This document shows, in pieces, positions 17,700 to 34,586 of a stretch of DNA of 52,225 nucleotides. Every line of letters begins with the position of its first letter. Position 1 is the stretch's first letter. The DNA is taken from positions 1-52,225 of IMG/VR virus record IMGVR_UViG_3300017912_000774. One strand, 5' to 3'. The notes under the pieces are model-generated. The model worked only from the letters and a program-made list of their open reading frames with translations. It did no database searches and had not been told where the DNA came from. The DNA is from a virus (lineage: Duplodnaviria; Caudoviricetes). The translations under genes were made by a program, and so were the position numbers.

Positions 17700-17827
17700 T
17701 ATGTCTTTCTCTTTTTCTTAGCTTTAGATGGGAGCAGCCCTTTGTTGACTGCTCTTGCTCTTTCAGAAAAACCAAGCTTTTTCTTTTGCTTAATTTTTTT
17801 TCTTATTGTTTCTAATTTTGCTACCAT
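17699..17827 (-). CDS. Basic microprotein (42 aa, not in ORF track)
   Basis: MVAKLETIRKKIKQKKKLGFSERARAVNKGLLPSKAKKKRKT. Stop overlaps the next start. Confidence 0.7.
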   Translation of the reverse strand: MVAKLETIRKKIKQKKKLGFSERARAVNKGLLPSKAKKKRKT

Positions 17828-18497
17828 CTGAATATAAGTTATTAAAAGTTATTGTAGGGTCTAAGTAAGATTCATGTGACTCTGCAGAGTGTGTCCACTG
17901 TGAAGGACTAAAATCAGGTGCTCCTTCTCCTGTTCTCCATAGTGCAGGACTTGTTGCTCTTACTCTATTATTAGGTAATGCTACAATGTTACCTGTCCAC
18001 TTACCTGCATCAGTTAAATATAAAACATGAGACTGCTTATGTTGTGCTGGGTCATCTGCAATATCATTGTCTGTATAATCAACTGTAAACAAATACTTAC
18101 CTTGATGAAACTGATTATCAATTTTGCATAACCATGGTGAGGAACTAACCCTATCCATAACTACAACGCTATGAGTCCTAGATTCGCAATCCCATGGTTG
18201 ACATAAATGGTCTTCCATCGGTTCTGCCCATTCGTCTACAGGTATATCTGCAACTAAGGCTTGTATCGGCATTCTTGCCCACATTGCTCCTCCATGAACA
18301 TTCTCATCAGGACCATCTTCTCGGTCTACTTCGCAACCAGTAAAAACAACTTGGAAGCTTAGCGACCTATCGGGAATAGTGTTTACTGCTATGACCATCG
18401 CATGAAGAAACTCTCCATGATACCTTTGATGATTACACGTAAACTCCCTACGCACCCAACATTTAAAATGAGGTACGTTGCTTATGAGGTAGGGCAT
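17790..18497 (-). CDS. Conserved phage hypothetical protein
   Basis: 235 aa, HGGAMWARMPI, QPWDCES, QHKQSHVL and LPNNRVR motifs. Coupled to neighbours. Confidence 0.8.
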   Translation of the reverse strand: MPYLISNVPHFKCWVRREFTCNHQRYHGEFLHAMVIAVNTIPDRSLSFQVVFTGCEVDREDGPDENVHGGAMWARMPIQALVADIPVDEWAEPMEDHLCQPWDCESRTHSVVVMDRVSSSPWLCKIDNQFHQGKYLFTVDYTDNDIADDPAQHKQSHVLYLTDAGKWTGNIVALPNNRVRATSPALWRTGEGAPDFSPSQWTHSAESHESYLDPTITFNNLYSDGSKIRNNKKKN

Positions 18498-19130: not shown

Positions 19131-19594
19131 TTATTTTTAATCTTCTTAATACCTATCGCTAAACCACTCATGGCTTTCTTAGCTTTCTGTTCTTTCATAC
19201 TTTTTTCAATAGCATTTTGTCTAGCTGTTTCATAACCAGACATCTTTCCATCTTTATTTAAGTCTCCAAGTAAAGCACCTTTCATTAATCTTGGCACATT
19301 AGTTGGCAATTCCATAATAGATTTTTTAGGAAGCTTGGCGGCTCCTTTTTTGTTTTTAGGGACTCCTTGATTTTGAAATCTTTTAATAACTTCATCATCT
19401 GACATTGATTCAGGTAATCCCATTCTCAATCTATATGCAGCGGCTAGATTTTTTTTAGAAGTATCTGGACGCATTTTCATTTTGTCCGTGTCTATTTTAT
19501 CATCTTTACCAATTTTACTTAGAGTGTCTCTTGCCTGTGCTACGGACTTTCTGCCTTCAGCTTTTATTATATCCTCATTTGTAATTCTTTCCAT
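19127..19594 (-). CDS. Basic hypothetical protein with EF-hand-like loop
   Basis: 155 aa, DLNKDGKMSGYE and IMELPTNVPRLMKGA. Confidence 0.7.
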   Translation of the reverse strand: MERITNEDIIKAEGRKSVAQARDTLSKIGKDDKIDTDKMKMRPDTSKKNLAAAYRLRMGLPESMSDDEVIKRFQNQGVPKNKKGAAKLPKKSIMELPTNVPRLMKGALLGDLNKDGKMSGYETARQNAIEKSMKEQKAKKAMSGLAIGIKKIKNK

Positions 19595-20049
19595 TATGCT
19601 GGTACTCCTAATGTAATAATACGAGCTATCAATCTCTCAGCTCTTGCCGTGGTCTGTTTGTACCACCTGGAATCTTCCATCTCATCAGCCGCCTTGACCC
19701 AATCTCTGTCATTTACAGCAGCAATAAACTTTTTAAATTTGCTTAATCTTGGTCGCCCTAATTGGAAACACATATTAGCGATTACTAATTGTGCCTCTTC
19801 AGGTAAATCATTAAAGTCTGGGAATATCTCTTTACAATCCTGTAATGTTCTATTTATATCTACAGCAAACCAAGCATCAACTTGTTCCTGTGATACAGGA
19901 TATCCTATAGGTTTGCCATAGTAATCTTCATCCCATTCTGTAATAAGATGTCCAATACCTCCCGTTAAATGTCCTAACGAGCATCGGTACAATTCATAGA
20001 CGACACCTTCGTCATTTGATATTTCATCTTGTAATGTAGCTAAATTCAT
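19594..20049 (-). CDS. Endolysin, T4-type lysozyme (GH24)
   Basis: DEG...YRCSLGHLTGGIGHL, NMCFQLG..RLSKFKKF and AADEMEDSRWYKQT..RAERL. Confidence 0.9.
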   Translation of the reverse strand: MNLATLQDEISNDEGVVYELYRCSLGHLTGGIGHLITEWDEDYYGKPIGYPVSQEQVDAWFAVDINRTLQDCKEIFPDFNDLPEEAQLVIANMCFQLGRPRLSKFKKFIAAVNDRDWVKAADEMEDSRWYKQTTARAERLIARIITLGVPA

Positions 20050-24221: not shown

Positions 24222-24662
24222 GTGATTATTGAAGCAATATTCTGCTTGGCACTCAACACGTACCACGAGGCAAAGAACCAAAGCCTCGTGGGACAAATCG
24301 CAGTTGCACAAGTTGTAATGAATAGAGTAAAAGATTATCGGTATCCTAACAATGTCTGTGATGTTGTTAAGCAAGGTTTGACTTATAAATCAAATCCTAA
24401 TATACCTATAAGAAATCAATGCCAATTCAGTTGGTATTGTGATGGCAAGAGTGATAAAGCCAGACAAAAGAAAGCATGGGAGGTTGCATTACGAGTGGCG
24501 AATGGTGTTTACTATGGTAACATTGATGATGTCGTTCAAGGCTCAACTCACTACCATGCTCACTATGTCCAGCCTAGTTGGGCAGAAACTAAAACCTATA
24601 TAACAAGAATTGATGACCATATATTTTATAGATGGGATATCAATACAACTAAAAGGAAATAA
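24222..24662 (+). CDS. Cell wall hydrolase (SleB / Hydrolase_2 family)
   Basis: CLALNTYHEAKNQ...AVAQVVMNRV...CQFSWYCDGK...THYHA.YV.P.W...IDDHIFY. Confidence 0.92.
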   Translation: MIIEAIFCLALNTYHEAKNQSLVGQIAVAQVVMNRVKDYRYPNNVCDVVKQGLTYKSNPNIPIRNQCQFSWYCDGKSDKARQKKAWEVALRVANGVYYGNIDDVVQGSTHYHAHYVQPSWAETKTYITRIDDHIFYRWDINTTKRK

Positions 24663-25147: not shown

Positions 25148-25172
25148 TCTTATTCACAACCAATACCTCCAG

Positions 25173-25204
25173 CCCTACCTTGTTTGCACAAGGTGGGGTT
25201 TTTT
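25173..25204 (+). terminator. Intrinsic terminator overlapping promoter copy 2
   Basis: CCCTACCTTG-TTTGCA-CAAGGTGGGG followed by a T run. Confidence 0.65.
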
Positions 25205-25212
25205 GTTAATAT
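25184..25212 (+). promoter_or_regulatory. Early promoter copy 2 (TTGCAC-17-TAATAT)
   Basis: Exact repeat of the -35/-10 hexamers. Confidence 0.7.
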
Positions 25213-25252
25213 AAAGAATAATCAAAATTTACATAAAATAAGGAAGGAACAT

Positions 25253-25501
25253 ATGTTTTATGAATGTAAACAATGTGGGGATAATGTCCCAATCAAAAGA
25301 AAGACTGTGGCAAAATTCTTCACTGATTACTGCGTTAATTGTGCTTCTCTTATGGATTCTGGTATTAAAGCTGTTTACTCGCTTGTACCTACCCATAAGG
25401 GAGCATATCAACCAGTGACTAACAAGAAGCAAATATATGATGCGACTTGTAATCCTAAGAACTTTGACTTTAATTTATCGGAGGCTTTAAATGGCAAATA
25501 A
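25253..25501 (+). CDS. DksA/TraR-like C4 zinc-finger protein
   Basis: CKQCGDNVPIKR...YCVNC. Start MFYEC after AAGGA. Confidence 0.65.
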   Translation: MFYECKQCGDNVPIKRKTVAKFFTDYCVNCASLMDSGIKAVYSLVPTHKGAYQPVTNKKQIYDATCNPKNFDFNLSEALNGK

Positions 25502-25787
25502 AAATCTATTTGGTAAAACTACCAGTCCTGAAGGTGCGTATGCAACTTACAGAACAGATAATCCAGCAAATGGTATGTACTTTGAGTGGCGAGTGCTCAA
25601 GACGTATCAAAGAAAAGATAATGAGGACAAGAACCCATATGCCCGTTGGCATTGTGCAGTTAAGTCTCCTTATACTTATGATAAATGGGAGTATGGTGAC
25701 ACATATATCAAAGACATTATGGACACCAAGCCAAGACTTATTAACTCCACACAAGACTGGAAACAACAGTATGATGAGGATATCTAA
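25491..25787 (+). CDS. Conserved phage hypothetical protein
   Basis: 98 aa, FEWRVLKTYQ...PYARW.CAVKSP...WEYGDTY. GGAGG RBS. Confidence 0.8.
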   Translation: MANKNLFGKTTSPEGAYATYRTDNPANGMYFEWRVLKTYQRKDNEDKNPYARWHCAVKSPYTYDKWEYGDTYIKDIMDTKPRLINSTQDWKQQYDEDI

Positions 25788-25798
25788 GTCACACTCGT

Positions 25799-25827
25799 TT
25801 GCACAACTTTGTGCAATTTGTTAATAT
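25799..25827 (+). promoter_or_regulatory. Early promoter copy 3 with palindromic operator-like site
   Basis: TTGCAC-17-TAATAT. The -35 lies within the inverted repeat TTGCACAA-CT-TTGTGCAA. Confidence 0.7.
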
Positions 25828-25861
25828 TAATAAAATCAAAAATAACGGAAAGGGGAAAGCA

Positions 25862-26287
25862 ATGCCTAGAGCTTTTAGAGATGAAGACATTGTTGTAGTC
25901 GACTACAAAACTCGTACCGACTACATCAAGTTCTTGGGCAAAGTCGTTGGCTACGACTCGCCCAACAGAAAGTATGTTGTTCATACTTTTGCACACGCTG
26001 ACGGATATTATCGAGTCACCAAAGACTTGATGCTCAAGTGTCACAAGTATGAACTCAGACTAGCCACTGGCGAAGATATTGATGCCATGAGTAAACATCA
26101 AACTTATGTCATCACTAGTCTAGCTAAAGAGTGGTGTGCCTCTCTTGGTTATGCTTCGAGTGAAAGACAGGAGGCTGGTTTAGTCTATAGCTCTTTTGCT
26201 CTTCAGCGTATCAAGGATATGAACTTTAACAGAAACTTCACAGAAGTATTACCAATAGAAAGGAATCGCTATGTTTCATGGATGTAG
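25862..26287 (+). CDS. Hypothetical protein (operon gene 1)
   Basis: Start reassigned to MPRAFRD after AAGGGG, downstream of promoter copy 3. Confidence 0.75.
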   Translation: MPRAFRDEDIVVVDYKTRTDYIKFLGKVVGYDSPNRKYVVHTFAHADGYYRVTKDLMLKCHKYELRLATGEDIDAMSKHQTYVITSLAKEWCASLGYASSERQEAGLVYSSFALQRIKDMNFNRNFTEVLPIERNRYVSWM

Positions 26288-26858
26288 TATAGATGTGACT
26301 CCAGTCACACTGGGTAGAATAATCCCACGTAGAGATGTGCCAGTTGGTCATGTATTTAAATACAAATCAACTGCCAACTCTGAGGGCTATATGTATGCCC
26401 ACTTAGATAAGTTTGACTCAATCATGTATTCACTCAAGTTTGATAAATATGCCAAGTCAAGCACCACGTCAACGCCAATGACGTACACTTCAACACCAGA
26501 CACAAGTCCACGTATGAGTAATGAGGTTGAGATTGTAGGTTACTACAACTTCACTGTGACTCTACAGAAAGTGCCTGAGGTTGTTCCTCTGTCATCAATC
26601 AAGAATGCACAAACTGCTGTGTCATTCAGAAATGATTTTGATGAACAGGATTACCCTCACATTTATCTTGTGCTTGGCGAGACATCTGCTAGGAACAGCT
26701 CACATTATCCTGTCTCTGAGAATAGATTACTCTTGAAACTCACTAAGAACTTCTCGATTGACAAAACTAAGTGGTGTGCTTTGAGCAGTATGCATGAGAG
26801 CACAATGTCAGCTATACGTGGCACTGTTGGTGTTAACATTTATGAAGGAGGTGAATGA
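26271..26858 (+). CDS. Hypothetical protein (operon gene 2)
   Basis: 195 aa, AAAGGA RBS, overlaps both neighbours. Confidence 0.8.
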   Translation: MFHGCSIDVTPVTLGRIIPRRDVPVGHVFKYKSTANSEGYMYAHLDKFDSIMYSLKFDKYAKSSTTSTPMTYTSTPDTSPRMSNEVEIVGYYNFTVTLQKVPEVVPLSSIKNAQTAVSFRNDFDEQDYPHIYLVLGETSARNSSHYPVSENRLLLKLTKNFSIDKTKWCALSSMHESTMSAIRGTVGVNIYEGGE

Positions 26859-28891
26859 TGCCTTACTCACTTAAGAACTACACTAGACGTGGGGAGATGA
26901 TATCAACTCCTAAGCATATGAATGAGATAGCAAATCAAATGAATAACTTTCTTCTTAAATTTGCTAAGGAGAATAAACTGAACAGCAATTACTTTTCAAA
27001 AGTATCTATGGATGTTCACCCTCTTGTGGTATCTGCTGCTCGTAAGATTCGTATTCTTGCAAAGCCTACACAAGATTTTGTAAAAGAAATCGAAAATGCA
27101 TGGCGAGGAATGCAGGGTCTCAACTCGTGGCATTCTATAAACATTAGGATTACCCACCCCATCATGTGGGCACACGAAGAAGCCAAAAGATATTCAAAAG
27201 ATGAAGACTCGTTGAACTGTCTTGCTTTTGTGAACTTGGCACTGTCGTATCCAATTACGCAAAATTCTGCTAGATACGGCAATTCGGGCAATGTCAGTCA
27301 CCCAAACATGACTAGTGAGAACCCTTGGACTCCAAAGCATACGATTGGGTTTGCTAGTCAGCTTGAGATAGACTTGAAGTGTGAACATAGGAGTCAGTCA
27401 TGGTTGCCTTTTTCACGAGGTCGCAGACGTTTGAATGGCAGACGTGTGATGTCTTTAACTCGTATACTGGCTAGGTATGTGTTGATTGATGAGTTGCCTA
27501 TTGAGCCTAAGACTGTTGACAATCTTGCACAGAAGATAATGGACACATACAAACCTATGTCGTTTCATGAAACTAAAACTTTACAAGATATGCGAGATAT
27601 GTATGTCAAGAACAGTCCTGACACTCCTGGCTCTTGCATGGACAGCACTCATGGGTTTTATGTTACTAGACCACATGAACCAGTTGACTGGTATCATTAT
27701 TGTCCTAAGACTACAGGCTTTTATGTTAAACGTGCTAATACAGTTCTTGCTCGTACCATTGCTTATTTTAATGAAACTGATAAGAAATGGTATTACACGA
27801 GAATATACTCGAGTCGTGAACTTTACAGACGTAAACTTCAACAAGAGTTGAAAAACCTAGGCATTGAACGTGCTGAGGAAAGTTCTTTACTTCGAGAACT
27901 TCGTGGAGGTAAAGATGTAGAGTTCGACATACCACTTAGTAAGTACAATAGCAGAGACTCTTGTCCCATTCCGTACTTTGACTTTATGCCTGCAAATTTT
28001 ATGTGGATACGAGTAGAAGACGGAGTCAACAAGTGTTTGCTTACTTCTCGTAATGATAAACCTGAGGGCAGAGGCTGGGCTAGTCCTAACCTAGCAACTA
28101 CCAATGGTGGTCATGTGTATGAGTATGGCAGTCAAAGAACTTGTCATTATTGTGATACTGAAGTTTATGATGAAGACTCTCCAATACGAGCCCCTGATGG
28201 TGCAATATTCTGCTCCTCTGATTGTGCATCAGATGCCAACTATGTGAGGTGGCAGACCAGTGATAACTGTGAGTGGCGACAATATGCTTTTGACCCTAAA
28301 GTAAATATGGATTGTCTTTGGGAGCCAACCATATTCAGTAATCTAAACGCAGCTATCGAATCTCGTGAGGGTGTGTTTGTTTACTGGCATCCTTGGGCTG
28401 ACGTAGAGTTTCCCGTCATGCGAAGTGTGTGGGCAACTCAACAAGGCTGGGGCTTTAGGACTACAAGTGTTCTACATTATCATGAGATGGTACACCCCAT
28501 CACTGGTAAAAGAATCGTAAGCAGTAGTGGTAGACAGCGACATCAAGTTTGCTACCCTGAGGCTTACACAAGAAGGTCAGGCAACTATGCTGAGGTACTG
28601 CCAAGTGGTGGTGTTGGCATGGTGTTTCTTAAAATATATGGCGAACATAAACGTCTAAGTATTTACAGAGACAATGGTCTGACAAAGGCTGTGCTTGAGA
28701 ATAAGAGTAAGTTTGTCAAGATAGACAGCTCTAACGGACACTCAAGTGAAGCAGTAGAGTTCTCGTTTGCGAATCAATACTTTGATTTCATGGACTTGGA
28801 CAAAAGCAGTAAGACACGAGTTCTTTCTCATGCTCTACCTGCTGAAGGCGTAACAATAACACTTAACCAACCAAAGAAGGAGACTTTATAA
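26855..28891 (+). CDS. Large hypothetical protein with SCM/ARTI/RIY/PYFD motifs and Zn finger (operon gene 3)
   Basis: 678 aa. PGSCMD...LARTIAY...YYTRIYS...PIPYFD, then CHYC-x17-FCSSDC. Confidence 0.8.
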   Translation: MMPYSLKNYTRRGEMISTPKHMNEIANQMNNFLLKFAKENKLNSNYFSKVSMDVHPLVVSAARKIRILAKPTQDFVKEIENAWRGMQGLNSWHSINIRITHPIMWAHEEAKRYSKDEDSLNCLAFVNLALSYPITQNSARYGNSGNVSHPNMTSENPWTPKHTIGFASQLEIDLKCEHRSQSWLPFSRGRRRLNGRRVMSLTRILARYVLIDELPIEPKTVDNLAQKIMDTYKPMSFHETKTLQDMRDMYVKNSPDTPGSCMDSTHGFYVTRPHEPVDWYHYCPKTTGFYVKRANTVLARTIAYFNETDKKWYYTRIYSSRELYRRKLQQELKNLGIERAEESSLLRELRGGKDVEFDIPLSKYNSRDSCPIPYFDFMPANFMWIRVEDGVNKCLLTSRNDKPEGRGWASPNLATTNGGHVYEYGSQRTCHYCDTEVYDEDSPIRAPDGAIFCSSDCASDANYVRWQTSDNCEWRQYAFDPKVNMDCLWEPTIFSNLNAAIESREGVFVYWHPWADVEFPVMRSVWATQQGWGFRTTSVLHYHEMVHPITGKRIVSSSGRQRHQVCYPEAYTRRSGNYAEVLPSGGVGMVFLKIYGEHKRLSIYRDNGLTKAVLENKSKFVKIDSSNGHSSEAVEFSFANQYFDFMDLDKSSKTRVLSHALPAEGVTITLNQPKKETL

Positions 28892-30354
28892 TGTCTTTAT
28901 ATAACTATGACTGGAGCACAAAGCTTCAAGAACCTGAGGTCGCAACAATGACCAAAGTAACTCGTGGTAAACAGATGGATAATCTGCTCTATGATTTACT
29001 GACAACAGTATCGCCTCATGGCAAAGAGAAACTGATAAGTGATATCATACTCGAAGCACTTGCCAAAGGCACTAAGAAAAAGAAAGGTTACAAGGCACAC
29101 ATTGATGTCAAAGGTAATCTTATCGTAAAAGTAGGGGACTATAAGAAATCTAAAGTCATGTTCAGTTCGCACATGGACACTGTGCAAAGCAGAGTGCCAG
29201 TAGACAAGACTGACTTACGTATCACTGATGAGGGTTATGTATATGCCTCATATGATAAAGATGTGCATGAGTATGTACACAAAGACAAAGTCATGACCAA
29301 GAATGAAATTGGTGACTTAGCTGAAGAAAAAGGTTTCAAGTTTCAAAACTACATTCTTATGGGTAAAGGCAAAACCAAAGCAGTCTATGGCTCAGATAAT
29401 GACTTTGATGATTGGATACAGACAGATGTAACTGTTACCACGAGGACATCAGTCAAGCCAGTATCAAGTGTACTCGGTGCAGACGACAAACTTGGTTGCT
29501 ACATCATGTGCAGACTAATCATGAATGGCACAGATGGTTTGTATGTATTTCATACTGGCGAAGAGTGTGGTGGTATCGGCTCGAGCCACATATCTGAACA
29601 GACACCTGAGGTTGTCAAAGGCATGAACTATTGTATTGCTTTCGACAGATATGAGTATGGACATATCATCACTCATCAAGCTGGTGGTCGTTGTTGTTCA
29701 GATGCTTTTGCAAATAGTCTAGCTGCAAAGCTAAATCCTTTGTTACCACCTAAACAACAAATGGGTCCGAACACTGGTGGTTCATTTACTGACTCTGCAA
29801 ACTATACCAAGCTAATAGCTGAGTGTACCAATGTCTCTGTCAGTTACAAGAATCAACATTCAAGTCGTGAGCACTTTGACTTGATATGGTTCAGAGATGT
29901 TCTGATACCTGCTTTGTTGAAGATAACATGGGACGACTTACCAGTGGTCAGAGACCCCAAAGAGGAGGTGTCCCCCTTTCGTCGTTCGAGTTACTATGGG
30001 GCGAGGCAAGGCTCGTTTTTCAAAGCACATTCCTCGAACAAGAGTACGAGGTCTTTGGTTTCAGCAAGGAGCTCTTTCTCGTCTTCAGAGCGAATGAACC
30101 AGTCTACAATAGACAAGTGCAATCATCTGCTTGATGCTAAGTTCTATGGCTATGACCCTGAAGAAGGTCTGCCTGAGCATATGAGTGACAAACAGAAAGC
30201 AGACTTTGTTAAGTACACTATCGTCAAAGAAAATCTTACTATGCAACAGATAGCTGAGTTGATTGTTGATGCCGAGAAAGAAACCACTAAGAGAGTTGAA
30301 CTTGACTCCTATGGATTAGGTTCACCTTATCAATCAGGTTTTTATGAGTACTAA
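28891..30354 (+). CDS. Zn-dependent peptidase/amidohydrolase (M28/M20/M42 clan)
   Basis: SHMDTV, LGADDKLG, FHTGEECGGIGS, IAFDR, FTDSANY and NQHS metal-ligand/catalytic motifs. Confidence 0.88.
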   Translation: MSLYNYDWSTKLQEPEVATMTKVTRGKQMDNLLYDLLTTVSPHGKEKLISDIILEALAKGTKKKKGYKAHIDVKGNLIVKVGDYKKSKVMFSSHMDTVQSRVPVDKTDLRITDEGYVYASYDKDVHEYVHKDKVMTKNEIGDLAEEKGFKFQNYILMGKGKTKAVYGSDNDFDDWIQTDVTVTTRTSVKPVSSVLGADDKLGCYIMCRLIMNGTDGLYVFHTGEECGGIGSSHISEQTPEVVKGMNYCIAFDRYEYGHIITHQAGGRCCSDAFANSLAAKLNPLLPPKQQMGPNTGGSFTDSANYTKLIAECTNVSVSYKNQHSSREHFDLIWFRDVLIPALLKITWDDLPVVRDPKEEVSPFRRSSYYGARQGSFFKAHSSNKSTRSLVSARSSFSSSERMNQSTIDKCNHLLDAKFYGYDPEEGLPEHMSDKQKADFVKYTIVKENLTMQQIAELIVDAEKETTKRVELDSYGLGSPYQSGFYEY

Positions 30355-30367
30355 TACTTTTCCCCTG

Positions 30368-30400
30368 CCCCCTATCGGTTTTTATCGGTAGGGGGTTTTT
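30368..30400 (+). terminator. Intrinsic terminator closing the four-gene operon
   Basis: CCCCTATCG-loop-CGGTAGGGG followed by GTTTTTT. Confidence 0.75.
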
Positions 30401-30412
30401 TATTTTGGGGGG

Positions 30413-31249: not shown

Positions 31250-32445
31250 TTAAACTCCTGATGCACAAAGAGTTTTTTGATGCAAACAAAACTCGTGTCA
31301 TGCGTTCAATGTTCCCAAATGAGTTGACAGACTTATATGACACCATTGTTAGTGGACACGAGAGTTACGAAAGGGACTTATCTTCACAAGAGATTAGGGA
31401 GATATACAAAGTCAGCAACCCAACTGCCACTCGTGCAAAACGAGAAGCAGTCGCTGAGGTGTTGTCTGATATTGAACATCTGCCATCAATAGGAACTGAC
31501 GTAGCTACAGATGTATTAGAAAAGATGTGGCAACAGGAGATAGGACGTAATATCGCAGATATGGGTCTAGCCATTATGGAAGGCTCACCTGAGAAGATTC
31601 ACGATGTGAGGGCACTCATAGATAAATCAGAGCAAGGCTTTGTGCCTGATGATGATGTCACACCAATCACAACAGACTTAGATACACTATTAGAATATGC
31701 ACAGAATGAAAACTGTTGGGAGTTCAATGTGCCTACTCTAAATAGAGTGGTCAGAGGTGGCAAGGCAGGAGAGTTTATGATTTCTTTTGCTAGACCTGAG
31801 ATTGGTAAAACTGCCTTTTACGTATCACTTGTGGCATCTCCAAACGGCTTCTGTTCACAAGGAGCTGATGTTCACATAATAACCAACGAAGAGCCTGCAC
31901 GTAGAACAATGCTTCGTGCAGTTAGTGCATACACTGGATACAGTGAAGAAGATATATATAAGAATCGTTCACAAGCAAAAGAGAAGTTCACAGAGATTGC
32001 TCACAACATAACTATGATTGACAATGTTGATGCATCAATAGAATGGCTAAATAAATATTGCGAAAACAAAAAGCCTGACGTGTTGATTGTCGACCAGTTA
32101 GATAAGTTAGATGTGATGGGCACTTTTGCAAGAACAGATGAAAAGCTAAGAAGTATCTACACAAAGTATCGTGAGATATGTAAGAGACATAATCTGTTTG
32201 GTATTGGTATTAGCCAAGCTAGTGCTGATGCTGAGGGCAAAACAAATGTAACTTATGCTATGATGGAGAACAGTAAGACTGGTAAAGCCGCTGAAGCTGA
32301 CTTGATAATCGGCATCGGTAAATCAGATATTACTGACAACACAGATAAGAAACGATACTTAACTATATCAAAGAATAAATTAACGGGCTTCCATGGCAAA
32401 ATCATTTGCAACTTGGATACAGATTTGAGTAGGTATACAGCATGA
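31234..32445 (+). CDS. Replicative DNA helicase (DnaB/SF4)
   Basis: ARPEIGKT Walker A, LIVDQLD, ISQA, SKTGKAAEAD and ISKNK. Confidence 0.92.
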   Translation: MEQQLIKLLMHKEFFDANKTRVMRSMFPNELTDLYDTIVSGHESYERDLSSQEIREIYKVSNPTATRAKREAVAEVLSDIEHLPSIGTDVATDVLEKMWQQEIGRNIADMGLAIMEGSPEKIHDVRALIDKSEQGFVPDDDVTPITTDLDTLLEYAQNENCWEFNVPTLNRVVRGGKAGEFMISFARPEIGKTAFYVSLVASPNGFCSQGADVHIITNEEPARRTMLRAVSAYTGYSEEDIYKNRSQAKEKFTEIAHNITMIDNVDASIEWLNKYCENKKPDVLIVDQLDKLDVMGTFARTDEKLRSIYTKYREICKRHNLFGIGISQASADAEGKTNVTYAMMENSKTGKAAEADLIIGIGKSDITDNTDKKRYLTISKNKLTGFHGKIICNLDTDLSRYTA

Positions 32446-34586
32446 CAACAACGTATTTAGACGTAGAGACTACATTTGTGGTGGATGAGAATAGGAGAAC
32501 AGACCCTTCACCATTTAATGCAAATAATAAATTAGTAACAGTTCAATATTCACACAATAATGAACTGCCGCAGTTACATTGGTTTTATCACAAAGACATG
32601 GACGAGATGTCAACTGAGATGGCTGTGGGAGAAGCATTTAATTTAGTACAAGATGTACTAGATAAAACCACTTTACTTGTTGGTCACAATATTAAGTTTG
32701 ACTTGATGTGGCTTTGGGAAAGTGGCTTCACTTATGATGGCAAAGTATATGACACTATGATTGGTGAATATATATTGATGCGAGGTCAGAAGTGGGGACT
32801 GAGTTTGTATGACTCTTGTGTGCGTAGAAAAGTTGCACTGAAGAAGTCTGACTTGACTCACAATTATTTAAAAGATGGTATTGGTTTTGATGCTATGCCT
32901 ATGGACGTTGTTCAAGAGTATGGTTTAGCTGACATAGAATCAACAAAACAATTACACCTTGCACAACAAGAGATATTTAGAAATTCACACAACTCACCGA
33001 TGCGAAAACATCTGAAGTTGATGAATGATTTTCTTCCTATACTCACAGTCATTGAGCGTAACGGAATCAAGATTGACTTCACAACCTTGGACAAAGTGCG
33101 ACTTGATTATGAGAAAGAGCAAAAAGAATTAAAAGCTAAGATGGAAGAAATATGTCGTGAAGTCATGGGGGATACAAATGTAAATTTTGCATCTCCTGAG
33201 CAAGTAAGTCAGTTGATTTACTCACGTAAAGTCATTGATAAGAAGAAGTGGGCAGAGGCTTTCAACATAGGTCTTAATGAAAAGGGCAAACCTTTATTGA
33301 GACCTAGACTGAGTCTTCCACAATTTGCATCAATGGTAAAAGCTATGACCACTCGTGTTCACAGAACAAAAGCACAACATTGTCACAAGTGTCATGGCAA
33401 AGGCGAGTTCTTCAAGATAAGGAAGGACGGACAAAGATGGAAGAAAGCTACTAAATGTCCTGCATGTTTTGGTGCAGGGTTTATTTACATGCCTCTTCCT
33501 AAAATTGGTGGACTCACAATGAATCCAAGAGATATTGGAGATGTGTCTGCTAACGGGTTTGCCACTGATAAAACTACTTTAATTAGACTATTAGCTATTG
33601 CTAAACATAATGGTAACTTAAAAGCACAAGAGTTTCTTAGGTCTACCATAAGACTAAATGCAGTAGATGTTTACTTATCCAGTTTTGTCGGTGGTATATC
33701 TCGCAACACAAGAAGTAATGGTTTGTTGCATCCGAAGTTTAATCAGTGTGTCACTAGGACTACTAGGTTGTCTTCATCAGACCCTAACTTTCAAAATCAA
33801 CCACGAGGTTCAACATTCCCAGTTAGGGCAGTTGTCGTGTCTAGGTTTGATAATGGGTCGATACTACAAGCCGACTATAGTCAGTTAGAGTTTCGTATAG
33901 CTGCTCAACTATGTGGCGATGAAACTATGATTGAAGACATCATGAAAGGTAGTGATGTTCACAAATACACTGCTTCAATTATATTTAATAAGCCTGAAGC
34001 AGAAGTTACTAAAGAAGAACGTACTGAAGCAAAGGCACATACGTTTAAGCCCTTATACGGGGGTACTACGGGTACCCCAAATGAGACCGAATACTATAAG
34101 GCTTTTGTTGATAAGTACCCAAAGCTAGGAAAATGGCATGAGACGTTACAAACTGAAGCTATATCGACTGGTGTTGTTACCATGTATACTGGTCAGCAAT
34201 TTGCTTTTCCAGATACTAGACGACTTGCCAACGGAAATGCATCAGGAGCACCTTCTATTAAGAATTATCCTGTCCAAGGTCTTGCAGGTGGTTGCGTGGT
34301 TCCACTGGCACTTATTCATTTGCAAAATGAGATTGTCAATAAAAGAGTTGCATCTAAGATTATTAATACAGTCCATGACTCGATAGTCTTAGATGTATAT
34401 CCTGGCGAAGAAGAAGTTGTAGCACGTATGACATATGATGCTATGACTAAAGTAGACAAGCAGTTTGAGGAACTTTATAACGTAACTTGGAAAGTTCCTT
34501 TGGCTGTGGATTTAGAAATAGGCAAAGATTGGTTAAATATGAAAGAATATCGCTTGACTAACTCTGCTGAATGTAATATAAATTGA
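32442..34586 (+). CDS. polA: DNA polymerase family A with DnaJ-type zinc-finger insertion
   Basis: Exo DVET/HNIKFD/YGLAD. CHKCHGKG...CPACFGAG insert. Motif A DYSQLEFR, motif B AKAHTFKPLYG, motif C VHDSIV. Confidence 0.95.
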   Translation: MTTTYLDVETTFVVDENRRTDPSPFNANNKLVTVQYSHNNELPQLHWFYHKDMDEMSTEMAVGEAFNLVQDVLDKTTLLVGHNIKFDLMWLWESGFTYDGKVYDTMIGEYILMRGQKWGLSLYDSCVRRKVALKKSDLTHNYLKDGIGFDAMPMDVVQEYGLADIESTKQLHLAQQEIFRNSHNSPMRKHLKLMNDFLPILTVIERNGIKIDFTTLDKVRLDYEKEQKELKAKMEEICREVMGDTNVNFASPEQVSQLIYSRKVIDKKKWAEAFNIGLNEKGKPLLRPRLSLPQFASMVKAMTTRVHRTKAQHCHKCHGKGEFFKIRKDGQRWKKATKCPACFGAGFIYMPLPKIGGLTMNPRDIGDVSANGFATDKTTLIRLLAIAKHNGNLKAQEFLRSTIRLNAVDVYLSSFVGGISRNTRSNGLLHPKFNQCVTRTTRLSSSDPNFQNQPRGSTFPVRAVVVSRFDNGSILQADYSQLEFRIAAQLCGDETMIEDIMKGSDVHKYTASIIFNKPEAEVTKEERTEAKAHTFKPLYGGTTGTPNETEYYKAFVDKYPKLGKWHETLQTEAISTGVVTMYTGQQFAFPDTRRLANGNASGAPSIKNYPVQGLAGGCVVPLALIHLQNEIVNKRVASKIINTVHDSIVLDVYPGEEEVVARMTYDAMTKVDKQFEELYNVTWKVPLAVDLEIGKDWLNMKEYRLTNSAECNIN
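34554..34582 (+). promoter_or_regulatory. Sigma70-type promoter at the end of the polymerase gene
   Basis: TTGACT-17 bp-TATAAA upstream of an AAGGAG RBS. Confidence 0.65.

Follow-up and report, generated by a model that had tools for sequence, protein, structure and literature searches.

The window analyzed here is the whole of an IMG/VR virus record (IMGVR_UViG_3300017912_000774; 52,225 bases; completeness estimate of 94%), and it carries an operon of four genes, g1 to g4, of which the two larger ones, g3 (26855-28891, +; 678 residues) and g4 (28891-30354, +; 487 residues), are our main subject. The observations outlined below are consistent with the proposal that, at the level of fold and motif, g3 and g4 form a fixed two-enzyme pair. 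That is, g3 appears to hold a divergent transferase core of the GNAT type, in which one cysteine and one arginine are invariant, g4 has the motifs of a clan-MH peptidase, and a g4-type gene directly followed the g3-type gene in all 32 g3-family loci sampled. The pairing and the reading at the level of the fold are supported; the writer/eraser mechanism is an inference, and we favor a two-step amide chemistry, to which we assign a probability of roughly 40%, in which g3 would transfer a group via Cys261, g4 would cut an amide in the pathway, and the variable termini of g3 would select a host-specific target. As for the phage itself, the DNA polymerase of the window (32442-34586) shares 47% identity with the polymerase of Pelagibacter phage HTVC033P and 38-43% with the polymerases of Roseobacter CRP phages and Puniceispirillum phage HMO-2011. 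Because of these identities we regard the window as an HMO-2011-type marine podophage, near-complete by the estimate above.

The case for g3 as an enzyme begins with its conservation. By direct search g3 is an orphan: Pfam, PHROGs, NCBIfam and PADLOC gave no match to it, three metagenomic relatives that were scanned have no PHROG match either, sequence searches of the PDB matched the zinc ribbon alone, and neither megablast with the operon nor tblastn with g3 or with the relative P0045 found a match among 50,697 phage records. A word-indexed search returned 13 relatives, and a profile of those retrieved 196 representative proteins at E <= 1e-3, 143 of them at <= 1e-10. In an alignment of 126 relatives, at about 20% identity, only four residues are invariant (C261, R300, C430 and C433), and a further 12 are kept in at least 90% of the sequences (W183, P234, Y250, S260, M262, P276, P371, P373, Y374, D376, G418 and C453). 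The motifs that an earlier, sequence-only reading of this DNA (the initial annotation) had picked out, S260-C261-M262, A299-R300-T301-I302, R316-I317-Y318, P373-Y374-F375-D376 and a C4 zinc finger, are all present and conserved and make up the most conserved positions of the family; the cysteine of the SCM motif, on which the annotation had hung its mechanism, is the same in every one of the 126 divergent relatives.

Conservation, isoelectric point and modeling together divide g3 into a variable, basic N terminus (residues 1-149), a basic helical segment with an RGRRRLN motif (150-233), a GNAT-like alpha/beta core (234-410, as modeled) that holds the SCM loop with C261, R300 of ARTI, R316 and Y318 of RIY and Y374 and D376 of PYFD, a zinc ribbon, and a variable C terminus (511-678). 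The conserved core of the family runs from about 150 to 510, and the N-terminal 149 and C-terminal 168 residues vary most; among close relatives the median identity is 37% for the N terminus, 34% for the C terminus and 51-61% for the core. The segments covering residues 1-233 have isoelectric points of 9.6-9.9. The predicted ribbon, with C430, C433, C453 and C457 as its four cysteines (C-x2-C...FC-x3-C; family consensus DGxxFCSxxCA), belongs by profile to the FCS/TRASH/L24e type, with matches to L24e at 1.4e-4 and to the MYM-type ZNF (MYM/FCS finger) at 1.7e-3, and zf-FLZ and zf-FCS were each found in 2 of 82 family members in a Pfam scan. A PcfJ-like identity (PF14284) was also considered for g3, based on an Atlas feature score of 0.82 and a BFVD match at rank 33 (E 1.2e-2), and was dropped when Pfam gave no such match in the window (E <= 10) or in 82 + 14 family proteins.

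What fold would present these residues? A full-length model of g3 from 13 sequences was poor, with a predicted local distance difference test (pLDDT) score of 52.4, and a model of the core from 82 sequences was used instead (pLDDT 90.9; predicted template modeling score, 0.77). Foldseek comparison of the core with the PDB gave a best E of 6.6e-3, with probabilities of up to 0.99 and no match at E <= 0.001; among the matches listed, nearly all PDB rows were chains of the GNAT superfamily, as were all 50 rows among the matches listed from two VIA structure searches. The structural matches span model residues 85-192, which correspond to g3 234-341 and cover part only of the GNAT domain, a mixed alpha/beta fold with the order b1-a1-a2-b2-b3-b4-a3-b5. 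These comparisons support a divergent GNAT-type transferase core, as far as a predicted structure can be followed. A match at the level of sequence is absent, in that curated GNAT family models matched neither g3 nor any of 81 relatives scanned (E <= 0.01). A search of PMC5512222 by terms showed GNAT families other than that of g3. Compared with the superfamily at large, g3 differs by a 28-residue loop with the invariant cysteine that replaces the helix-helix region and by its additional zinc ribbon and large terminal regions. In the model, Cys261 would thus sit in this loop, where GNATs place the helix-helix region that shapes the acceptor site; Arg300 would lie on the middle strand, and Arg316 and Tyr318 in the loop with which GNATs bind the phosphate of the cofactor; and Tyr374 and Asp376 would fall near the usual position of the GNAT general acid. 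Co-folding of the g3 core with g4 scored 0.00 in both runs, which were made without controls and give no evidence either way.

The identity of g4 is firmer. It matches phrog_4191 ("peptidase") at 1.5e-61 and Pfam M42 (PF05343) at 2.2e-5 (24.1 bits; cut-off, 23.2), the latter through residues 197-262 only, aligned to positions 133-205 of a profile of 292; the PF05343 tag is precomputed on 20 of 120 listed g4 homologues. The N terminus weakly resembles the LysK, ArgE and DapE models of the M20 family in NCBIfam (best, 35.1 bits versus a cut-off of 363, over residues 27-108 only), and g4 reaches none of the cut-offs of the curated NCBIfam M20 deacylases. Its motifs, SSHMD from residue 92, GADDK at 196, GEECG at 223, AFDRY at 250 and HSSRE at 323, align with those of structures 5xoy and 3isx. 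We take H94/D96, D198, E225, D252 and H323 to be the metal ligands and E224 the catalytic base, roles that we assign from general knowledge of the family. The complete metal ligands and the cluster of extra cysteines (EEC, 226; RCCS, 268-269; ECTN, 312) seen in the initial annotation are borne out by 71 homologues, in which D198, D199, E224, E225, D252, H323 and C312 are invariant and H94, D96 and C268 occur in over 90%; as in g3, the motifs picked out from the sequence are the best-conserved positions of the family. Thus, on its motifs, g4 is predicted to be an intact di-metal exopeptidase or amidohydrolase of clan MH (M42/M20/M28-like) that falls outside every curated subfamily.

Within clan MH, g4 has the motif set HxD, DD-x-G, EE, D and H in common with M42 aminopeptidases of the TET/FrvX type and with M20 deacylases; its family differs from these by the conserved Cys268 and Cys312, by the motifs GGRCCS and ECTN, and by a C-terminal extension of about 125 residues. 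M42 enzymes carry an inserted domain between the first two ligand motifs, and g4 does likewise, at residues ~100-190, in addition to its extra C-terminal region (~361-487). The insertion between HMD and ADD, which the initial annotation had put at about 90 residues, is real, at ~70-90 residues, because the peptidases of Autographiviridae lack profile positions ~110-177; these peptidases are without both the inserted domain and the C-terminal extension. Relative to annotated phage peptidases, g4 shows at most 44% identity and at most 68% coverage, and BLASTP and phmmer found no similarity between its C-terminal extension and the KP34p12-like gene.

How tightly are the two genes linked? The 32 loci with a g4-type peptidase directly 3' of a g3-type gene comprise 23 of 23 distinct IMG/VR contigs, the one informative metagenome contig (three such loci were retrieved, and two were too short to reveal neighbors) and eight of eight Autographiviridae. 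The order g3, g4, primase, helicase is likewise widespread: it was found in each of the 21 IMG/VR loci with enough sequence to show it, in the metagenome contig (L042) and in seven of the eight Autographiviridae, where up to three small open reading frames (ORFs) separate g4 from the primase. The metagenome contig, 7 kb long and from a distant subfamily, has a g3-like gene, a g4-like gene, a primase and DnaB in that order. In the other direction the link is loose, for a g4-type peptidase stands without a g3-type gene in four of four other phage types (Thermus phage P74-26, Bacillus phage Izhevsk and two uncultured megaphages). The co-occurrence that the initial annotation had made a test of its proposal therefore stands for g3, which is always with g4, and fails for g4, which also occurs alone. 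The pairing is thus supported as obligate in one direction, g3 never being found without g4 among the sampled loci, and this asymmetry makes it most likely that g3 depends on the chemistry of g4 and not the reverse. A separate observation concerns megaphages of about 635 kb (LR745206.1, LR756502.1 and LR756504.1), each of which has four to six separate matches to the g4 peptidase; the two copies examined encode 452 and 708 residues and have no g3-like neighbor within 6 kb.

The initial annotation had put the system forward as a candidate undescribed one; the gene pair itself, however, is already on record. A tblastn search with g4 reached 370 phage records, mostly Autographiviridae of Klebsiella, Pectobacterium and Vibrio, and eight of this family (KF1, GHSM17, SU503, Minorna, Ep4, Pasto, CB5 and BF25/12) were sampled. 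Carriers of the pair include Drulisvirus, Maculvirus, Phimunavirus, Stompvirus, Pseudomonas phage Ep4 and Rhizobium phage Pasto. As with g3 and g4, the KP34 gp10/gp11-type pair has a large SCM protein directly 5' of a clan-MH peptidase, often with overlapping genes and usually just 5' of the primase-helicase-polymerase genes, and in all eight upstream proteins SCM is followed 95-119 residues on by PYxD, as in g3. In passages of the genome papers (PMC4411677, PMC6115819 and PMC3082699), the pair is listed among conserved core early genes of KP34-like and PhiM1-like phages as a "hypothetical protein" and a "putative peptidase," with no function given, and a full-text literature search found no functional study of the pair and its locus tags in these three papers only.

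That the upstream proteins of these phages are homologous with g3 is supported by three lines of comparison. The g3-family profile matches SU503_10 (1e-6), Minorna_049 (5e-4) and KF1_030 (2e-3), with GPxSCM, AR, Y-R-Y, PYxD and the zinc ribbon aligned; hhalign places the GSCM of the Pasto protein on the GSCM of g3; and a Foldseek search of BFVD with the g3 core gave 26 matches at E <= 1e-3, among them KpV48, DE17, Buco, Nobby, CB5 and Lullwater, with KP34 gp10-like proteins at 8.7e-11 (the best match) to 1.5e-4. The relationship is a distant one. Identity to g3 lies below the detection limit of tblastn, and ~225-425 residues precede SCM in the Autographiviridae proteins, compared with 260 in g3. 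The Autographiviridae proteins are strong matches to phrog_6980 or phrog_13313, both of "unknown function," and their peptidases to phrog_4191. CB5 differs from the rest in that its g3-type gene lies in two ORFs, with SCM at residue 10 of the second. These two ORFs (L045:1966-3711), CB5_13 (291 residues) and CB5_14 (285 residues), match the two halves of phrog_13313, and related phages have one ORF of 544-572 residues; this arrangement could be a split gene or a frameshift.

Is the module part of the replication machinery beside which it sits? The cultured phages HMO-2011 and HTVC033P share the primase-helicase-polymerase block of the window and have neither g3 nor g4. The slot 5' of the primase holds a tyrosine integrase in HMO-2011 (L039:5377-6255), small ORFs in HTVC033P and g1 to g4 in the window, and since its contents differ among phages, this boundary resembles a hot spot at which accessory cassettes are exchanged. 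The rates of divergence differ as well. Among close relatives, identities are 89-99.6% for the primase, 92-98% for the helicase, 71-98% for g4, 45-94% for g3, 41-98% for g2 and 47-93% for g1, and among distant relatives they are 67-88% for the helicase, 60-75% for the polymerase, 43-55% for g4 and 28-34% for g3. Overall, g1, g2 and g3 have changed at two to three times the pace of the replisome genes. Natural variants of g3 carry indels that sum to multiples of three, and thus the frame is kept open despite this fast divergence. Taken with the patchy distribution, the fast divergence of g1 to g3 points to a host-specific role in takeover or counterdefense and not to core replication. PADLOC-DB models of defense and counterdefense systems matched neither g1 to g4 nor the SU503 pair (E <= 0.1).

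The two smaller genes travel with the pair at short range. Both g1 (25862-26287, +; 141 residues; isoelectric point of 8.8) and g2 (26271-26858, +; 195 residues) accompany it throughout the nine close contigs and, with weaker similarity, in a number of distant contigs: homologues of g1 are 47-93% identical in nine of nine close loci and 25-34% identical in six further distinct contigs, with one additional match of 32 residues, and those of g2 are 41-98% identical in nine of nine close loci and 24-28% identical in 7 of 14 distant loci. Neither has a family or structure match in Pfam, PHROGs, NCBIfam, PADLOC, the PDB or Atlas. Autographiviridae have no detectable counterparts of g1 and g2, and BLASTP and phmmer found no similarity between these and the small genes that flank the pair in that family.

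The four genes form an autonomous operon (25799-30396) with its own sigma-70-type promoter, overlapping reading frames and a terminator, an architecture that the initial annotation had described correctly. The promoter (25799-25827, +) consists of a -35 element, TTGCAC (25799-25804), a 17-nucleotide spacer and a -10 element, TAATAT (25822-25827), and overlaps the palindrome TTGCACAActTTGTGCAA (25799-25816, +). A consensus promoter scan did not list it, and the palindrome was rated a weak terminator-like hairpin; the element is nonetheless kept 5' of g1 in nine of nine related contigs, with a perfect TATAAT in six of the nine, which is good comparative evidence for a promoter. The dyad symmetry is lost in three of the same nine contigs (L005, L006 and L009), and for this reason we do not call the palindrome an operator. 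The true start of g1 is the ATG at 25862, behind the strong ribosome-binding site GGAAAGGGGAAAG, where an ORF listing had given TTG at 25799. Every junction overlaps from there on: g1 and g2 by 17 nucleotides, g2 and g3 through ATGA behind GGAGG, and g3 and g4 through a common TAATG behind GAAGGAGA, an arrangement of translational coupling. An intrinsic terminator (30367-30406, +), whose 13-pair stem occupies 30367-30396 ahead of a T tract, closes the unit. It is the strongest within the 14 kb scanned, and variants in other metagenomes carry matching insertions in its two arms, C at position 30367 in one and G at position 30390 in the other. The next transcription unit has a TTGACG-type promoter from 30413. 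We consider the best explanation of these features to be an accessory module under its own promoter, placed at the boundary between early and replication genes.

Near-identical or variant copies of the 4.8-kb operon stretch occur in seawater, estuary and marine metagenomes from nine studies, and the window may itself derive from one of these. A single metatranscriptome contig of 259 nucleotides, from one run, lies within g3 (28107-28365); as only contigs were available and DNA carry-over is possible, it does not demonstrate expression.

Several further features lie around the operon in the window and in its relatives. The minus-strand arms of the window hold the capsid, portal, terminase and tail genes, and the plus-strand arm (~22-41 kb) has small early genes followed by the primase, a DnaB-like helicase, the polymerase, a Cas4-like exonuclease, a RusA-like resolvase and ribonucleotide reductase. 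Amid the early genes, 24222-24662 (+) encodes a SleB/endolysin-like cell wall hydrolase of 146 residues (phrog_938, 1.4e-22), distant from the lysozyme-like gene at 19594-20049 (-), and 17790-18497 (-) encodes a protein of 235 residues that matches phrog_3704 ("ferredoxin"; auxiliary metabolic or host takeover) at 8.9e-31. A second strong terminator-like hairpin of 13 pairs (25171-25200, +), ~600 nucleotides 5' of the operon promoter, would delimit two small ORFs at 25184-25787 as a separate unit. Eight of the 23 related contigs have a complete tRNA gene shortly 5' of g1. Four of these genes are tRNA-Trp(CCA), located between the conserved promoter and g1 (L007:1799-1872, L008:2793-2866, L009:2638-2711 and L011:4927-5000), and four are tRNA-Glu(UUC), located 280-760 nucleotides 5' of g1 (L017:3501-3575, L018:3134-3208, L019:2909-2984 and L032:1878-1953). 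In five of five records tested, one of them 100% complete, this was the sole tRNA gene; the window has none. Among phages with a g4-type peptidase, two have annotated anti-restriction genes close to the module: an ArdA-like gene is directly 5' of the pair in Rhizobium phage Pasto (L002:1450-1956), and an Ocr-like gene is ~1.7 kb 5' of the lone peptidase in Bacillus phage Izhevsk (L048:1819-2319).

Based on the pairing, the fold-level reading of g3 and the motifs of g4, we posit a two-step amide chemistry. In this model, g3 would take an acyl or aminoacyl group onto Cys261 and pass it to an amine, or would remove such a group, with the target recognized by the fast-evolving N- and C-terminal regions; g4, as a di-metal exopeptidase or deacylase, would hydrolyze an amide bond within the pathway of g3, and it would either ready the acceptor or donor or trim the product. 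A metabolic precedent exists in the "protect then deprotect" pairs of the ArgA/ArgE type, in which a protein of acyltransferase (GNAT) fold and a clan-MH (M20) amidohydrolase act on the same amide. Beyond the fold there is no sequence relationship between these and g3/g4, and the phage pair differs by its early/replication context, its fast evolution, its extra domains and the lack of pathway genes between the two. The analogy that the initial annotation drew to the amidoligase clusters of phiEco32 found nothing pointing to it, and no test was aimed at it.

Four points weigh against the proposed chemistry. GNAT enzymes bind the pyrophosphate of acetyl-CoA through a loop, Q/R-x-x-G-x-G/A, between b4 and a3; this glycine-rich motif is absent from g3, where the equivalent stretch reads WYYTRIYSSRELY, and from the family, where the consensus is G-R-x-Y with no G-x-G/A and with the nearly invariant R316 and Y318. 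The placement of the conserved residues given above comes from the order of secondary-structure elements in the model, and the common pocket that they would form is a prediction. The zinc ribbon is missing in three of the eight Autographiviridae homologues and present in five. Finally, of the 31 loci with enough sequence beyond the pair, 30 have a primase at a distance of up to ~1.3 kb 3' of it, which would also fit a role linked to replication.

Could g3, then, work without catalysis? It may be a binding or scaffold protein, either an accessory of replication (origin binding or helicase loading) or an inhibitor of a host protein, with a degenerate GNAT-like core, a structural Cys261 and a peptidase that acts independently or processes g3. 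The widely kept order of g3, g4, primase and helicase would suit such a role, as would the missing acetyl-CoA loop, the basic segments over residues 1-233 together with a nucleic-acid-type ribbon, and the partial extent of the GNAT fold match. We nevertheless consider this unlikely, given that the replisome block of HMO-2011 and HTVC033P does without the pair, that in phage Pasto the pair is followed by a helix-turn-helix gene and an integrase with no primase, and that a single invariant cysteine and a single invariant arginine over 126 sequences look catalytic and not structural. An assignment of g4 to virion (prohead) maturation, with g3 as a structural or scaffold protein, is an alternative that the initial annotation had itself raised, and phage genomes do often encode head-maturation peptidases. 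This possibility is very improbable: the operon lies on the plus strand in the replication arm and the virion genes on the minus-strand arms, g4 is by its motifs a clan-MH exopeptidase and not a member of a prohead-protease family, and passages of PMC6115819 place the pair among early genes.

If g3 is an enzyme, what is its donor and what is its target? Acetyl-CoA need not be the donor of a GNAT fold, for Fem/MurM enzymes, L/F-transferases and aminoacyl-phosphatidylglycerol synthases lack the CoA loop, as g3 does. An aminoacyl-tRNA-dependent transferase of this kind would add an amino acid to the N terminus of a protein or to another amine, g4 as an aminopeptidase would expose or trim that N terminus, and host proteolysis would be redirected by this phage-run N-end pathway. 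The basic helices and RNA-binding-type ribbon of g3, the M42-like center of g4 (M42 being an aminopeptidase family) and, as a weak hint, the tRNA genes near g1 in 8 of 23 contigs would fit. The tRNA, however, is absent from the window and from the vicinity of 15 of the 23 loci, it may only mark an insertion hot spot (the HMO-2011 integrase occupies the same slot), and its two identities argue against a dedicated donor; we rate this version as improbable. Alternatively, g3 may add an acyl or aminoacyl group to bases of DNA or RNA and g4 trim the adduct, protecting replicating phage DNA from restriction. Mom of phage Mu, a GNAT-fold protein, modifies nucleic acid bases, and the tight linkage to replisome genes, the basic regions and ribbon of g3 and the anti-restriction genes near the pair in Pasto and near the peptidase in Izhevsk can be read in the same way. 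We think this quite improbable: the window has no other DNA modification genes (hydroxymethylase, pathway kinase or glycosyltransferase), no search that we made returned a Mom-like match, close relatives have the replisome and not the pair, and modified DNA has not, to our knowledge, been reported for KP34-like phages.

We retain the two-step amide chemistry of g3 and g4 as the preferred reading. As a bolder reading, and a long shot, we speculate that with g3 begins a class of GNAT-fold transferases that is specific to phages, depends on a thiol and lacks the canonical CoA loop. Such an enzyme would use aminoacyl-tRNA or another activated acyl donor to tag host protein or nucleic acid as replication sets in, and its obligate partner, an M42-like aminopeptidase, would expose or trim the tagged end. 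A virus-encoded system of tagging and trimming of this N-end-rule-like type would explain why the sole tRNA gene of several related phages is found at the head of the operon.

KP34-like Klebsiella phages, which are in wide use as candidates for therapy, have the pair as one of their core features, and it is also found in PhiM1-like phages of plant pathogens, in Vibrio maculviruses and in a clade of the abundant marine phages of the HMO-2011 type. What is new here is a predicted GNAT-like core in which a cysteine and an arginine are invariant, a large partner that never occurs without its peptidase among the sampled loci, and a module that is dispensable for the replisome and evolves like a host interaction factor. 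An anonymous pair of core genes thereby becomes a testable two-enzyme hypothesis and, if the chemistry is real, it would represent a new enzymatic route of host takeover or counterdefense.

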